From Escherichia coli (lineage in GTDB: Bacteria; Pseudomonadota; Gammaproteobacteria; Enterobacterales; Enterobacteriaceae): 64,000 nt of DNA. The stretch lies in assembly GCF_024223415.1 (NCBI RefSeq), contig NZ_CP100500.1; one strand, 5' to 3'. The notes below the pieces were generated by a model. It saw only the letters and a list, made by a program, of their open reading frames with translations. It did no database searches and was not told where the DNA came from. Each line of letters opens with the position of its first letter. The first letter of the stretch is position 1. The position numbers and the translations under genes are program-made. Of the stretch, positions 6,746 through 12,755 are shown in pieces.

Positions 6746-6812
6746 CCAATTAGTTGAATTAGGAGTATAATAGCCACTTTTAAGGTTCTTTCATGGTCAC
6801 AGTTAACCTTCA

Positions 6813-7064
6813 TTGCTCCTGTTGCCAGTCCGTTCAGGTTTACCGTCACGGGAAGAACCCAAAGGACATGATCGATTTCGCTGCCGTGACTGTCATCGAG
6901 TGCTTCAGCTCACTTACCGTTACGAGGCCCGTAAACCGGGAGTTAAAGAGCAAATCACTGAAATGGCTTTCAACGGTGCCGGAGTTCGCGATACTGCCCG
7001 TACGCTGAAAATCGGCATTAATACTGTCATCCGGACTTTAAAAAACTCTCGCCACGAAGAATAA
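6813..7064 (+). CDS. insA: IS1-family InsA-like protein
   Basis: 83-aa ORF with Cys-rich N-terminus (CRDCHRVLQL) and InsA-like HTH (ITEMAFNGAGVRDTARTLKIGINTVIRTLKNS); divergent from canonical IS1 InsA. Confidence 0.7.
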   Translation: MLLLPVRSGLPSREEPKGHDRFRCRDCHRVLQLTYRYEARKPGVKEQITEMAFNGAGVRDTARTLKIGINTVIRTLKNSRHEE

Positions 7065-7082
7065 CGTCATACCCGGTCGCTC

Positions 7083-7377
7083 ATGCTGATATGGCACTCA
7101 TCTGCGAACTTGATGAGCAATGGAGTTTTGTCGGCAGTAAAGCGCGACAGCACTGGCTCTGGTACACGTACAACACGAAAACTGGTGGCGTTCTGGCCTA
7201 CACTTTTGGCCTACGGACTGATTAAACCTGTCGTGAATTGCTGGCGCTGCTTGCCCTTTTACCATCGGTATGTTGACCACTGACGAATGGGGTAGTTACA
7301 CCAGAGAGTTACCGAAGGAGAAGCATCTGACTGGTAAGATTTTTACTCAGCGCATTGAGCGCAACATCTACCTCTGA
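7083..7377 (+). pseudogene. insB: IS1-family InsB-like transposase, interrupted
   Basis: Pieces ...DEQWSFVGSKARQHWLWYTYNTKTGGVLAYTFG... and ...DEWGSYTRELPKEKHLTGKIFTQRIERN... match InsB but lie in different frames with stops. Confidence 0.6.
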
Positions 7378-8019
7378 GAACCCGAATCAAACGTCTGGCC
7401 CGCAGAACTATCTGTTTCTCGCGCTCTGTAGAACTTCATGAAAAAGTCATCGGTGCCTTTATCGAAAAATATATGTTCTACTAATTGGAGTCACCACCTT
7501 CGTTTGTTTAAAGAACCTGCTGGTCCTGCCATTAATATTACCTGCTGATTGCTTCACATCCGGATTCCTCGCACTGCGCGCGGGTTATTGTTTCGTTTTC
7601 GGCCACGGGGTCGCCAGGGCTCTGTTTGCAGGCCATGATGGCCTGACCTGTACTGTTTCTCAGGCACTGAGATGTCCGTTTACGCCATTTGTTCCCTGCC
7701 CCTCTGTCTGATAACGAATACGCTCACAACGCACAGTACTGAACAATACCGACAACAACATGTCTTACATGAAATTCGCTGTAACATCCACCGGAAAACA
7801 TTTTCAGATATCGGATGAGGTACTACTTCCATTGACAGCGCGAGGTAACAAAATTGATGGTAACTCTGACCATTAACCGTAAACCGCAGGGTATTTTCAG
7901 TAAATCACCGGCAACGCCGCTGCAGGATAAAACGGACACAGCATACAAAATGAAGGCCGGTGACCAGATACCACAGTTGAACGATAAACAGAAACCTGCT
8001 GATAAAACACCGTGGCGAC

Positions 8020-8365
8020 ATGACAAAACGCCAGAGCAAAAACCGTAAGCGCATTATTCGTCTTGTGGAACTCTGGCCTGAGTCATTCAACCGGGAAAAA
8101 AACAAAACCACTTAAAGTGGGGATACCTGACGACCTGATACAGGATATCGCCATCCGAGAACTGGCGTTTGGCGCTGGTACATTACATGCAGCAGTGGCG
8201 TCTTATGTGCAGTCTCCGCGCTATTACCGTGCGTTAATAGCAGGTGGCGCCCGTTACAACCTGAACGGTCAGCCGTGCGGGGAAGTGACACCACAGGAAC
8301 AGAAAGAGGCAGAGACCCGTTTAATGATGCTGAATGACCGACGAAAAGACAGAAAACCTCGTTGA
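8020..8365 (+). CDS. FinO/ProQ-domain RNA-binding protein, frameshifted in an A7 run
   Basis: Frame from ATG 8020 gives MTKRQSKNRKRIIRLVELWPESFNREK then a stop; the next frame continues KPLKVGIPDDLIQDIAIRELAFGAGTLHAAVASYVQSPRYYRALIAGGARYNLNGQPCGEVTPQEQKEAE, matching the ProQ N-terminal/FinO domain signature. The frames join if the A7 run at 8096-8102 is A6. Confidence 0.6.
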
Positions 8366-8382
8366 CTGCACAACAGCGCTGT

Positions 8383-9135
8383 TCACTGAGCTGTAATCAA
8401 TGTACAGCGCTGTACCGGGCGATGGGTAATACCGGTCACAACCGGTAACCCCAGAGACAATGCAACTGTTTTTAACGCAATATACTGGCCGGATGTATCA
8501 CCCCGGGCAGCCTGAAAACACCTTTCCACCCGGCATTGTCCGTCAGCACTTATCACCCGCCATGTCTGTTGCAATAAATCCACCCGTTGCGAACATTCTT
8601 CATCAACCGTGGCACTGACCCGTGGATGGCAAATGCTCGTCTGGCTGAGCAGCAACAGGCATCGCATTGTTGCTCCTCCATGTTGTTCCCGCAACCAGCG
8701 TAATACCACCGGTGGTGCTGGACTGGCCGTGTGATTACGTTCAGTAATACGCTCGTGCACCTGTCGGTAAAAGGAAGTACAGAATGCATGAATCTGTTGT
8801 CCGTTGATGTTTCCTTCTGCCGAATGGAGTGTGAAGTGGACGGCCAGCAGACGCGGCCAGTGATCCACCGCCTGCTGAATAAAACGCCGGATTTCCACCG
8901 GCTCTGAAAGTACGGTTTCGGTTATTTGCACGATTTGATCCCCTTGAATGTTGCTGAACCGGTGTCGGTACGCAGGAAAGCACGCCGAGACCGGTACGAT
9001 GCCTGTTACAGCGAAGAACGAGGAATGACAGACGGGGGCAGCAGGTCGCCAGCACCAGGGACAGGGCTGATTTCCACAATACCAACGCTGGTATTTTGCA
9101 CATTGCCAGCGTACCGGCATTACAACACGTTTCAT
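8383..9135 (-). CDS. Gp2-family (YagK/YfjJ-like) island protein, third paralog, possibly degenerate
   Basis: Shares a motif pattern with the two upstream paralogs (LLAVHFTLHS..., VLRWLREQHGG...MRCLLLLS). Start uncertain; the Met at 9135 would overlap the alpA stop in an ATGA arrangement. The N-terminal region is low-complexity. Confidence 0.45.
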   Translation of the reverse strand: MKRVVMPVRWQCAKYQRWYCGNQPCPWCWRPAAPVCHSSFFAVTGIVPVSACFPAYRHRFSNIQGDQIVQITETVLSEPVEIRRFIQQAVDHWPRLLAVHFTLHSAEGNINGQQIHAFCTSFYRQVHERITERNHTASPAPPVVLRWLREQHGGATMRCLLLLSQTSICHPRVSATVDEECSQRVDLLQQTWRVISADGQCRVERCFQAARGDTSGQYIALKTVALSLGLPVVTGITHRPVQRCTLITAQ

Positions 9136-9368
9136 GCTGCTGCCCCTCGTGATGCCTCGATTCGTTGCTGCATCCACTGCTCCACTTCACTTTTGTACCA
9201 GCGGCTGCTGCGCCCCAGTTTGATGGGTTTAGGGAAATGGCCTTCACTGATCAGCTTGTAAAACCATTTGTCGGTCATACCAGTGAAGCTGGTGATGTAG
9301 TTCATGTCGATCAGGGGATCGTCGGCACGCAGCAATACGCTGTCGTGACCTGTCATTGAGGTCAACAT
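9132..9368 (-). CDS. alpA: AlpA-family phage/island transcriptional regulator
   Basis: Small ORF with the AlpA-type HTH (MTDKWFYKLISEGHFPKPIKLGRSSRWYKSEVEQW); the true start may be an internal Met. Confidence 0.75.
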   Translation of the reverse strand: MLTSMTGHDSVLLRADDPLIDMNYITSFTGMTDKWFYKLISEGHFPKPIKLGRSSRWYKSEVEQWMQQRIEASRGAAA

Positions 9369-9436
9369 GGTCAGAATGTCCTCTGTGAGATTTATGAATG
9401 TTGGGCAAATGCGGGTGAATCTGCTGAGCTGAGCTT

Positions 9437-10039
9437 TCAGAGCTGGCCTGCTACGGGATACCAGGGATTACCGGCGAGGTAACGGGCTTCCGGATCGCGC
9501 ACACCACGACGATCGCGGGCGAAATCACTGAACGCCCATATCAGCTCTTTGAGTCTCTCTTCGCAGTCCGGTGAACAACTGTCCAGCGCCACATCCCGGG
9601 TTATCTGTTTCTGGTACGGTGCCGCTTCACCCGGTGACGCGAAGCCCAGTACGTTGCTCCAGGCATCCAGAATCAGCCGATCCAGTTCAGGGCCGTCGAA
9701 ATACTCCTGTCTGACGCACAGCACCACGTGGTATTCCGGTTTTTCAGGATGACGAGTCAGGAGCCAGCAGAGGTCACGTCCGGGTGTTGCATTCATCAGC
9801 GCACTGACGGTTTCGATAAAGGCCATACCGAACCAGGTTTTTCTGTCGCTGAAGATGTTGCCATGTTCCCCCGGCAGACGAAGCAGGATCCGCCGTATTC
9901 GGGAGCAGGACTGCTCGCGCAACACACGGTTGAGAACGCCGATGATTTTGTTCTGATAAGATGGCCAGAAGGGCGCCATGCTATAGTCGAAATAAGGGAT
10001 AGCATTCATAAGATATGTTCCGTTATACGCAGCCCACAA
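9437..10039 (-). CDS. Gp2-family (YagK/YfjJ-like) island protein
   Basis: 200-aa ORF paralogous to 10366-11097 (e.g. ...KPEYHVVLCVRQEYFDGPELDRLILDAWSNVLG); belongs to the family common in CP4-type islands. Confidence 0.6.
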   Translation of the reverse strand: MWAAYNGTYLMNAIPYFDYSMAPFWPSYQNKIIGVLNRVLREQSCSRIRRILLRLPGEHGNIFSDRKTWFGMAFIETVSALMNATPGRDLCWLLTRHPEKPEYHVVLCVRQEYFDGPELDRLILDAWSNVLGFASPGEAAPYQKQITRDVALDSCSPDCEERLKELIWAFSDFARDRRGVRDPEARYLAGNPWYPVAGQL

Positions 10040-10365
10040 CGCGTCCTGCCCGTGGATGCGCTGACGTGTTATGGCTTGCGTATGGGGTTGATGGAATAAG
10101 TGAAAAACCGCGGCAGAACGGGAAGATCAGGTAACCGACAAGGGACAGAACACCGGATGCAGGTTCAGAATGAATGATCTCCGTTGACTTCGGTTCACAT
10201 CATTAAGCAGGACAGTAAGGTTTTACCGACGGAGTGTTTCCAGGAGCGAAAGCAGAGAAAAATACCGTTGCATGACTTCAGGACGACTTTTTCAGAAAAC
10301 GAGCTAAGGGCGTCAGCCAACGTCCTGTAGCATAAGCTCAGGCACCGGATGTCGTTTTACAGGGC

Positions 10366-11097
10366 TCACCTGCCATCCAGCAGACGCCCCGGCCCACGAC
10401 TGCAACCATAATTACGTTGCCCGGAACCGTCATGCTGCTTCGTCTCATATTTCACGAGATAACTGGCTCTGTTCCGGGCTTTCTGCAGCGCTTCCACATC
10501 ACCACGCTTGATCCAGAGAACAGCGGCTTCACCCGGCTTTTTTTCTGAAGCCTTCCTGGTATCAGAACATCCACCCGACAAAGGCGTGTCATCGGAAGAA
10601 GGGCGAGCATCAGACGATGCTGGTTTACGGGAAGGCGTCCACCTGGAAAAATGGGCCAGGCCATCGCCTTGCCAGGCCTCAAGATGCAGGGCGCTGCACC
10701 ATGCCTCCAGGATCATCGTCGCCAGCGAAGATGGTTCGCTGAAATCCCCTGGCGAGCACCAGGTATCTTTGTTGAGCAGCAATATCACGTGATAATGTTT
10801 CCTGCCTTTTTCCTTGCCAAACTCCCGACACCAGAAATAACGCAGAGTGGTTGCACGCACACGCTTGTTGGCACGTCGTTTTTTCCGCTGGTAAGCCTGG
10901 ATTTTGGCTTTCAGGGATTCGAAAAAACGAGAAATCACCGCTGAATCCGGATCGGGATCCATGATGGTGACAGGCATATACTCAGGGAAACGTAAATCCA
11001 CCCGGATTAACGAGACGGCACGGTGCTGCGACAGGGCACTGTCGAGAAGGCTGTCAAAACGGGATAACCAGTAAGCATTGTGTATTGGTTGATTCAT
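10366..11097 (-). CDS. Gp2-family (YagK/YfjJ-like) island protein
   Basis: 243-aa ORF (...RKHYHVILLLNKDTWCSPGDFSEPSSLATMILEAWCSAL...); its upstream leader shares a motif with the leader of 9437-10039. Confidence 0.6.
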   Translation of the reverse strand: MNQPIHNAYWLSRFDSLLDSALSQHRAVSLIRVDLRFPEYMPVTIMDPDPDSAVISRFFESLKAKIQAYQRKKRRANKRVRATTLRYFWCREFGKEKGRKHYHVILLLNKDTWCSPGDFSEPSSLATMILEAWCSALHLEAWQGDGLAHFSRWTPSRKPASSDARPSSDDTPLSGGCSDTRKASEKKPGEAAVLWIKRGDVEALQKARNRASYLVKYETKQHDGSGQRNYGCSRGPGRLLDGR

Positions 11098-12755
11098 GAT
11101 GAGAGATCTCCGTTGATTTGGATTGACTTCACATCATTAATCACCGCGGTAAAACTTTACGGCATCATGTCATTAAGCAATGCTACAACTCTCTGATTAA
11201 GAGTGATTGAAACGGAACAAACCATCCCGGAACGAAAAGATAATCCTGCACACAGCAGCAAAACACGCAACAACAGCATGAATGGATTTAAAAACGACAT
11301 GGACGACGAGAAAAGCCTGAAGGGAAAAGGATCCACAGAACATTCGAACAAAACACCAGAAACGCAACCAGAACGCTTCCTGGCAATGCAAATCAACAAC
11401 AACGCCAAAACCTACAGCTTAATCACACAACTCAATCACGAATGCGAATGACACGTTTAAAACCTGTTTACAGATAACGCCGTAACACGATCATCCCCAT
11501 CACCATCAGAATCGATTTTCTCATCCCGAAAATGTTACGTTTCACTACTCACCATAAAAACGATTAACCATCGATAACGTAAATCTCATCTGAATCAAAA
11601 AACCAAAACCAATCATCACACTTTCGCAATGCAAGAAGAAAAACCACATCATGACGAAAACAATGACCTTACATGAAAAAGCAAAACGTCAGGAATCGTT
11701 AATGCCTCAATCTGATTGTTATCAAAACATCCAGAAAGTCGTTTAACAGAATCGTCGTAAGCACATCGAAAAGAACGTCAGATCACCTCAGGAAAGTTCG
11801 GGTTGATTTAGCGTAAAGATACTTTTCTCAGCTTAACGTCGAAACACAAACCAAAAACCACAAACAACCAAAGCTCAGGAAAGGTTAAACGTCACATCAG
11901 TAAAATCGAATAGCAGATTGATTGCTTAAACAGGAAGGATTGTTTTACAGCAGCATTAAACTGATTTAGTTAACGTAAAATCAGAACTGACAGGTTTACT
12001 AACTTGGATGTGTATCAGTTCAAAAATGTGTACAGCAATGCGTAATGAAACACATTTAAAGGAGATTAATGGGAAAAGTGTGTAAATGCGTAAACAGGCA
12101 CTAATGAATCACTGGAGGAATACATACAAAACGACTTAATGAAAACATAAAAGGACCTAATGGAAAAGGTGTATATAATACCATATCCGACATTCTCAAC
12201 ATCTTAAGACATCCATGCAGACTGAATGTTGGTTTCAGTTTTTCACGGTAAGCATGAATCTTTTCTGTTCAAAAGCAGAGCAGATTTACTCTGGAATTAT
12301 TTTTCTTACTCCGTATTCTGTACAGCAAAAACTTGTGCTAACTTTACAGCAAACCATCATAATCAGCGTCTGTAGTCCCATCGCTTTACCCCATGAAAGT
12401 GAATCCATATGATGTGAGAGAGATAAGTCATCGTATCCGGTAAACACTGCTTACTATAACATAAGATCATTCAGTCAGTTTTATCTCTGAACTGACGATT
12501 ATGGCATGCTCATTTATATGGCTCACAGAGGAGTGTTATTATCCGTAAGCTTTAATCATCAAATCACATGACCATACCAAACTGGCGCTATATCAGCTCA
12601 TTTGACGCTCATTCCCTTTAGATTTCTTTATGTGTTTTTTGTCGATAATTAAAATGTAATATAAATTTAATATTTTCACATCATAAACACCATTTAAAAC
12701 CATCATCCTGAACATCATACAACAATATATTTTTACTAAAGCATGAATTGTATAT

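Follow-up and report, generated by a model that had tools for sequence, protein, structure and literature searches.

The proteins YfjJ and YagK are encoded by the islands CP4-57 and CP4-6 of Escherichia coli K-12, respectively, and AlpA promotes the excision of CP4-57. In related elements AlpA likewise drives excision or activation, being both necessary and sufficient for the excision of PICMI115 (PMC10803314), and for Pseudomonas islands an integrase, alpA and a gene of the Gp2-like type are reported as the likely core functions (10.1101/2024.08.29.610337). A module of this kind lies on the minus strand at positions 8383–11160 of a 64,000-nucleotide (nt) stretch of E. coli DNA (contig NZ_CP100500.1), the whole of which is hereafter called the window. 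It comprises three open reading frames (ORFs), G1 (ORF1), G2 (ORF2) and G3 (ORF3), which are arranged with alpA and a small Cys-rich ORF in the order G1, G2, alpA, small ORF and G3 (Table 1). On balance, the locus is best explained as a conserved CP4/P4-like island module of ancient paralogs that resemble replication initiation (Rep) proteins of the HUH endonuclease type.

The profile of the G1 family matches both YfjJ and YagK at E values of 1e-54 to 1e-56, and K-12 YfjJ keeps, like G1, the HUH motif (as HYH) and the Tyr-Lys motif. The island type is also shared with K-12, with GTPase, DUF932, antirestriction, RadC/JAB and CbtA/YeeU genes located downstream. Unlike the window, CP4-57 has the order alpA-yfjI-yfjJ. 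One family member each is present in CP4-57 and in the CP4-6 segment examined (K-12 284,000–299,000, around yagK), and no ORF2- or ORF3-type gene was found in either. An earlier note on this DNA, made from the sequence alone, was right that the window holds more copies than these K-12 elements, but such a number is not unusual, as the G2-alpA-G3 core occurs at a coverage of at least 80% in 1210 of 5426 complete E. coli genomes (about 22%). Some part of the core is found in 2835 of them, at a median of two places per genome; the island family occurs in roughly one half of complete E. coli genomes, frequently in several copies, and carries virulence, fimbrial, toxin-antitoxin and defence genes as cargo. 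The module is a common and already annotated one, and its novelty is modest.

G1 is a member of PF11726 (YagK_YfjJ_C; 126.6 bits against a cut-off of 25.8, E 1.2e-36, model positions 2–170), as a profile search for Gp2-family membership, proposed in the earlier note, confirmed. It also passes PF23343 (REP_ORF2-G2P; 40.7 bits, cut-off 27.8, E 3e-10) and matches PHROG families of the "replication initiation protein" type (E 8e-8 to 3e-4). The protein contains the HUH motif H101-Y-H103 and a YxxK motif (Y213 and K216); among 88 family sequences from Gammaproteobacteria, H101 and H103 are each kept in 84, and Y213 and K216 each in 85. Because it retains the metal-binding HUH motif together with the tyrosine of YxxK, G1 is the only plausible nuclease of the three proteins, and by these motifs it resembles rolling-circle initiators such as filamentous-phage gpII (PF23343) and the Rep proteins of microviruses and CRESS-DNA viruses. 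A search of the PDB with the G1-family profile gave no relative, and none of the three ORFs had a match in NCBIfam. Unlike the YagK/YfjJ relatives from other genera that were aligned (189–218 amino acids, aa), the E. coli type of 243 aa bears an insertion of about 40 aa rich in Ser, Pro and Asp (residues ~151–190; window ~10530–10647) between conserved blocks. In many E. coli islands the place before ORF2 is taken by a second Rep-like subtype, G1b (188–191 aa), which as a rule follows a DUF3987 gene. G1b retains the motifs as H-A-H and Y-L-A-K, and of its two weak Pfam matches the one to PF23343 is better than that to PF11726.

In near-identical genomes G1 is named "inovirus Gp2 family protein" by RefSeq. 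Unlike inovirus gpII proper, it is surrounded by island genes (alpA, ProQ/FinO, GTPase, antirestriction and toxin-antitoxin genes) and not by inovirus genes. A tblastn search of 50,697 phage records gave a single match (L102; OR844780.1, 277–843), an unverified low-coverage Escherichia phage contig of 4.5 kb which encodes a family protein of 40% identity and is probably host or island DNA rather than phage. The name mirrors a distant profile similarity to PF23343.

The three ORFs had been described in the earlier note as sharing a motif architecture, and profile-profile comparison showed that real homology lies behind it. Pairwise BLASTP, which was tried as the arbiter of paralogy, is too weak to decide, with E values of 0.003 for G1 and G2 (on the stretch HYHVILLL...LEAWCSAL), 0.043 for G1 and G3, and 33 for G2 and G3. 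For G2, an exhaustive search gave only E. coli relatives and two full-length proteins, P0317 (36% identical) and P0321 (32% identical), both of which carry precomputed PF11726 matches; P0317 (E 2.4e-15 to ORF2) passes PF11726 with 41.8 bits. The G2 profile matches most canonical family proteins at 1e-6 to 1e-17 and K-12 YfjJ at 1e-10, while hhalign aligned the G2 family (A3) to the G1 family (A2, 18 sequences covering several genera) at a probability of 98.2% (E 3e-14). For G3, all listed cluster representatives, including the 99%-identical P0063, have a precomputed match to PF27752, and RefSeq names the protein either "UCP030791 family putative phage-derived protein" or "YagK/YfjJ domain-containing protein". 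When genomes were scanned with the profile of G1, five loci, from Hafnia, Tenebrionibacter, Siccibacter, Superficieibacter and an enterobacterial metagenome-assembled genome, proved to hold genes of the G3 type, which match the G3 profile at 1e-11 to 1e-16 and the G1 profile at 1e-4 to 6.5e-9, and whose proteins score 19.5–24.6 bits against PF11726 (E 3e-5 to 1e-3), just under the cut-off. When these five relatives were added to the G3 family (A5), hhalign gave 96.5% (E 9e-10) against the G1 family, and G2 and G3 families were aligned at 86% (E 5e-6). The motifs are collinear in a joint alignment of G1, G2 and G3, and the AlphaFold models of G2 and G3 have the same order of elements, alpha-beta-alpha-beta-beta-alpha-beta-alpha.

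A number of observations speak against this kinship. ORF2 misses the PF11726 cut-off (11.5 bits, E 0.29), ORF3 does not match that model even at E up to 10, hhalign reached only 21% probability against the G1 family when the ORF3 alignment was limited to E. coli, and the link of G3 to the family rests on the five intermediates from related genera. The models of G2 and G3 are of only moderate confidence (predicted local distance difference test, pLDDT, 61 and 70), and their fold matches are generic ferredoxin- or palm-like ones, among which HUH Reps occur and do not stand out by score. The named matches in BFVD are few, several being microvirus Rep, CRESS Rep and "Inovirus Gp2", and all BFVD matches have E values of at least 1e-3. 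Together with the BLASTP result for ORF2 and ORF3, the scores below the cut-off and the low hhalign value would suit the explanation that ORF2, ORF3 or both stand outside the Gp2 family, the motif pattern being shared by chance. Such a coincidence is scarcely credible in view of the three profile-profile probabilities, the passage of P0317 over the PF11726 threshold, the matches of the G2 profile to canonical family proteins, the G3-type relatives that match both profiles, the collinear motifs with a common order of secondary structure, and the RefSeq name of ORF3. The possibility raised in the earlier note, that a profile search might find the third ORF unrelated, did not materialize, and the three ORFs are therefore paralogs. 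As ORF2 lies below the PF11726 cut-off yet is linked to the family by P0317 and hhalign, it is a divergent relative and not a member by the model's own rule; it represents a hitherto unrecognised divergent branch of the YagK/YfjJ family, and could be annotated as a YagK/YfjJ-related protein.

Unlike HUH Reps, two of the three copies in the window are devoid of catalytic residues. The HUH position of G2 reads E-Y-H (C-Y-H or F-Y-H in relatives), with only the second histidine kept, and its tyrosine position reads S-D-F/M-A-R. In G3 the HUH position reads M-R-C (E-C-K, E-Y-K or T-L-H in relatives), and there is no conserved tyrosine (Y in E. coli, F or L in other genera), the C-terminal alignment around this third motif being less certain as hhalign ended before that part. 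G2 and G3 would keep the predicted fold without the HUH and Tyr residues, and viral Reps are among the matches of their ferredoxin-like models; neither ORF2 nor ORF3 had a match in the PHROG search. It is probable that both proteins have lost catalysis. In each island examined the motifs are intact in one or more copies and missing from G2 and G3. The "hypothetical protein" ORF2 and the UCP030791 protein ORF3 are thus diverged, catalytically degenerate copies of a Rep-like Gp2 protein, and the set of three lineages is old and conserved, with the catalytic residues left in a single copy.

Selection is clearly purifying among the island lineages of E. coli, whose divergence at synonymous sites (dS) is mostly about 0.3–0.45: the ratio of non-synonymous to synonymous divergence (dN/dS) is 0.10–0.24 for G2, 0.28–0.38 for G3 and 0.02–0.11 for alpA. 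G3 is intact in several other enterobacterial genera at 23–26% identity. The gene order is zinc-ribbon gene-alpA-G1-G2 (P0321)-G3 in locus L087 and alpA-G1b-inserted gene-G2 (P0317)-G3 in locus L085, with orthologs only 32–36% identical to those of the window; over all elements in which the three lineages and alpA recur, ortholog identity is 24–36%. Hafnia, Siccibacter, Tenebrionibacter and Superficieibacter have G1-alpA-two DUF7828/Zn_ribbon_11 genes-G3, other E. coli islands have DUF3987-G1b-G2-alpA-G3, often with a converging ProQ/FinO gene, and locus L005 contains four paralogs (G1a, G1b, G2 and G3). In most other genera a single family gene stands beside alpA (87 loci surveyed). The low identity among the paralogs (16–22%), their co-occurrence in distant elements and dN/dS values well below 1 therefore indicate that the triplication is ancient and maintained, not recent and decaying, and there is little doubt about the paralogy, age and selective maintenance of the set.

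The earlier note had instead proposed that gene and promoter were duplicated together and that the third copy is in decay. A recent tandem triplication of one Gp2 gene with its promoter would agree with the adjacency of the genes on one strand, with the motif common to two of the leaders, with the Cys/Trp/Pro-rich N-terminal extension of ORF3 in the window and with the dN/dS of G3, the highest of the set. It is nevertheless very improbable, since BLASTP between the paralogs is barely significant or not significant at all, orthologs of every lineage are known from other genera or from distant elements, and leaders of about 77% identity cannot be of the same age as proteins of less than 22%. A recent transfer from E. 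coli to the other genera is untenable at cross-genus identities of 23–36%. As for decay, G3 has a Pfam family of its own (PF27752) and, as noted, is intact elsewhere and under constraint, and its N-terminal extension is not a product of degeneration but a separate conserved small ORF which was fused to it by a deletion.

This small ORF follows alpA directly. AlpA scores 40.8 bits against PF05930 (cut-off 21). The pairing of alpA with a single family gene is the only one in 58 of the 87 loci surveyed, and alpA adjoins a family gene in most of the rest. AlpA-controlled integrative elements and phage satellites (CP4-57, PICI, PICMI and the Pseudomonas tmRNA islands) are among the nearest known counterparts of the module. 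The frame of ORF3 opens with ATG 9135, in an ATGA overlap with the stop codon of alpA, and is 250 aa long. From the equivalent ATG of five other island lineages the frame runs for only 26–51 codons, and the family gene begins at a GTG corresponding to 8931, which is also the RefSeq start of ORF3. ATG 9135 therefore opens a separate small Cys-rich ORF, unannotated in RefSeq, which is found in loci L088–L092, L005 and L098 with the core MKRVV..VRWQCAKC.RWYCG...CPWCW. In the window lineage its second cysteine (residue 15) is a tyrosine, and a deletion joins its frame to G3. The first ~95 nt past the alpA stop diverge by 0.07–0.10 between lineages and the remaining spacer by 0.53–0.59 with many indels, and the GTG of G3 is preceded by a Shine-Dalgarno sequence in every lineage examined. 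The overlap with the alpA stop noticed in the earlier note thus stands for the small ORF, but the family gene itself starts at GTG 8931, and what was taken for a low-complexity N-terminus belongs to the small ORF. The 250-aa call should be treated as a fusion with the small upstream ORF. The frame of ORF2 is open from TTG 10039; since RefSeq uses ATG 10009 and a 2-nt gap separates the TTG from the ATG in one island lineage, the gene likely spans 9437–10009 (190 aa). The true starts are probably at 10009 for ORF2 and at GTG 8931 for ORF3. The small ORF has no significant match in Pfam, and its cysteine spacing, C-x2-C-x9-C-x2-C, is that of the Zn_ribbon_11 domains in genes at the same position in Hafnia. 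Genes with DUF7828 and Zn_ribbon_11 adjoin alpA in distant modules (L009 7226–8073 from Hafnia paralvei; L087 4323–4751), the two Hafnia genes standing in tandem between alpA and the ORF3-type gene, and an ORF3-type protein with a C-terminal Zn_ribbon_11 is found in the E. coli cluster P0113.

The leaders of G1 and G2 do share a motif, as the earlier note had it. Their best local alignment pairs 10170–10226 with 11099–11160 at about 77% identity with one 5-nt indel, and its score of 24 was reached by none of 1000 dinucleotide shuffles (10.5 ± 1.4, maximum 18); no third copy was found in the window. Copy 2 is located ~160 nt upstream of the ATG of G2, and its triplet aligned with the ATG of G1 reads CTG. 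Because the leaders are about 77% identical and the proteins less than 22%, the similarity cannot date from the gene duplication, and it reflects constraint or later recombination. The copy-1 element is also found upstream of the 243-aa gene in loci L005, L006 and L098, and no E. coli lineage examined lacks copy 2, not even those with G1b, whose own upstream region is without the motif. The core of copy 2 is near-invariant across 8 lineages, including two in which the rest of the leader is diverged or deleted. As a whole, the ~240-nt G2 leader diverges between lineages by 0.09–0.13 against a dS of 0.29–0.38 in G2, i.e. 3–4 times slower than synonymous sites, whereas the two other spacers diverge by 0.42–0.59 in three of four comparisons. 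Indels of 1 nt between lineages show that the leader contains no conserved ORF.

Related leaders precede family genes in other genera, where a T-rich run is followed by the two arms of an inverted repeat, which enclose a conserved ATGA(A/C) box, with the ribosome-binding site within the 3' arm. The arm sequences vary by taxon, as in CATTACCTATG...CATAGGTAATG of Alcaligenes, the 16-bp stem of Neptuniibacter, and CTCCGGT/ACCGGAG in Kosakonia versus CTCCAGT/ACTGGAG in Tatumella, and a folding z below −1.5 was obtained for 27.5% of 80 distinct leaders. Less favourable to a constrained structure are the E. coli leaders, which have no folding advantage over shuffled sequences (z −1.35 for the leader of G1, +0.25 for the segment with copy 2 and −1.35 for the whole 271-nt G2 leader), a covariation count with a hand-set stem over 9 enterobacterial leaders that is not significant (50 of 500 shuffles), the failure of RNAalifold to find a consensus among 17 leaders of different genera, whose two sequence groups do not align, and the lack of the outer stem in copy 2; recombination among islands could also yield the conservation of the leader. 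No Rfam match was found over 7500–12500 at E up to 1, a scan for promoters and terminators near both copies gave nothing above chance, and inspection of both strands by eye gave no convincing sigma-70 promoter. The idea of a conserved leader peptide was discarded, because the ATG/GTG frames upstream vary from taxon to taxon in their length, frame and sequence.

Recombination is the core of one alternative, according to which the repeat is functionless, a by-product of the swapping or juxtaposition of cassettes at the G1 position together with a piece of leader. That position does hold either the 243-aa G1a or the 188-aa G1b upstream of the same G2 leader, the window is without 3.2 kb, including G1b, relative to locus L005, with the alignments overlapping by ~10 nt at the junction (10244–10253), and copy 2 has neither an aligned start codon nor the outer stem. 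This explanation is unlikely, as the core of copy 2 is the best-conserved block of the G2 leader, the leader evolves more slowly than synonymous sites, and similar elements are found in front of family genes of distant genera. The leader common to G1 and G2 is under constraint. It is tentatively assigned as a cis element located 5' in the transcription units of the family genes and alpA; it may be an operator or promoter, a translational-control hairpin holding the ribosome-binding site, or a nick site. Because the hairpin statistics are modest, it is treated here simply as a constrained cis site.

The control of repY-repZ in IncI/IncB plasmids, where leader structures, an antisense Inc RNA and the FinO-family chaperone FopA govern translation of the initiator, offers a lead for the leader. 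Like that system, the module has a predicted structured leader with a ribosome-binding site directly upstream of a Rep-like gene, a 12-codon frame in E. coli which ends in ATGA on the start of ORF1, and, in several lineages, a ProQ/FinO gene converging on G3. Unlike it, no antisense RNA or promoter was found in the Rfam and promoter scans of the leader, the peptide of the short upstream frame is not conserved, and the ProQ/FinO gene is frameshifted in the window.

Regarding function, AlpA would promote excision of the island, G1 would nick a specific site on the excised or integrated element and so start rolling-circle-type replication or transfer, and G2 and G3 might bind the same DNA or G1, assisting or restraining it as non-catalytic partners. 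A nickase or replication role of the G1 module is a tentative proposal from its motifs. Two points count against it, namely that a literature search found no functional study of any YagK/YfjJ protein, and that a DUF3987 primase-type gene is located beside the module in many islands, so that G1 need not be the initiator. In PICMI, unlike the window module, replication depends on a primase and not on a Gp2-like gene (PMC10803314). The PICMI gene "iolg" was considered as a Gp2-like gene and discarded, its name meaning "integrase overlapping gene".

A serious rival, though not a likely one, accepts the same paralogy and assigns the proteins another job, with G1 as a relaxase-like nickase at an oriT-like site for conjugative mobilisation or helper-phage packaging, or with all three acting alongside AlpA in excision, purely as DNA-binding regulators or as architectural factors, with no part in replication. 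HUH enzymes include relaxases and transposases besides Reps, close adjacency to alpA has been conserved in most of the 87 loci, the upstream DUF3987 gene could supply replication, and G2 and G3 are conserved though devoid of catalytic residues. Transduction by a jumbo phage is reported to move Pseudomonas islands that carry alpA and a Gp2-like gene (10.1101/2024.08.29.610337). On the other hand, the nearest named profile matches of G1 are replication initiators and not relaxases, and the module contains no conjugation or packaging genes. More speculative than the proposed nickase or replication role, and rather doubtful, is the idea that the CP4-like "cryptic prophage" islands of Enterobacteriaceae hold a conserved three-part unit switched on through AlpA, composed of an active HUH nickase (G1), catalytically dead paralogs as obligatory partners or regulators (G2 and G3), and, beside the nickase gene, a conserved 60-nt hairpin-type element as its nick site or origin. 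If it were true, CP4-like islands would be autonomous rolling-circle replicons or hitchers instead of inert remnants, and the trio of enzyme and pseudo-enzymes would be a new arrangement for HUH systems. In any case, three lineages that travel with alpA in distant elements, with a strongly constrained non-coding element in front, provide handles on island replication or movement after excision, in the form of a candidate nuclease with two possible partners and a possible site.

Table 1. Features of the module in the window, and positions of G1b genes in other loci
Feature	Position	Strand	Remarks
Leader element, copy 1	11099–11160	minus	directly 5' of the G1 start; includes the G1 Shine-Dalgarno sequence GGAG
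G1 (ORF1)	10366–11097	minus	243 aa; coordinates exactly as in the earlier note; assigned by PF11726, PF23343 and RefSeq name
Conserved non-coding G2 leader	10010–10250	minus	contains leader element copy 2 (10170–10226)
G2 (ORF2)	9437–10009	minus	190 aa; RefSeq "hypothetical protein"; divergent paralog
alpA	9132–9368	minus	78 aa; AlpA/excisionase-type DNA-binding protein (PF05930, E 2e-10)
Small Cys-rich ORF	9040–9135	minus	ATG overlaps the alpA stop (ATGA); fused in frame to G3 here
G3 (ORF3)	8383–8931	minus	182 aa from GTG 8931; PF27752 (UCP030791)
G1b, locus L088	2549–3115		
G1b, locus L091	2531–3097		
G1b, locus L005	9438–10004		
G1b, locus L085	2520–3095		

Around the module, a ProQ/FinO-family gene (7857–8365, plus strand) converges on ORF3. 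It is frameshifted in the window lineage into two ORFs (7854–8048 and 8063–8365) and intact at the same place in loci L092–L095 and L098. RNA chaperones of the ProQ/FinO type usually act with antisense RNAs, a partnership which might connect to the conserved leaders. Remnants of an IS1 transposase are located at 6793–7283, just past this gene. On the other side, an Asn/Lys/Glu-rich ORF of 82 aa (11203–11451, plus strand; RefSeq hypothetical protein WP_000573215.1) lies ~105 nt from the start of ORF1. No tRNA gene was found anywhere in the window, and the closest annotated genome has no annotated integrase within ~12 kb of the module in either direction. In the closest genomes the island adjoins setC, and the best match of the module core is E. 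coli SMS-3-5 (99.9%).

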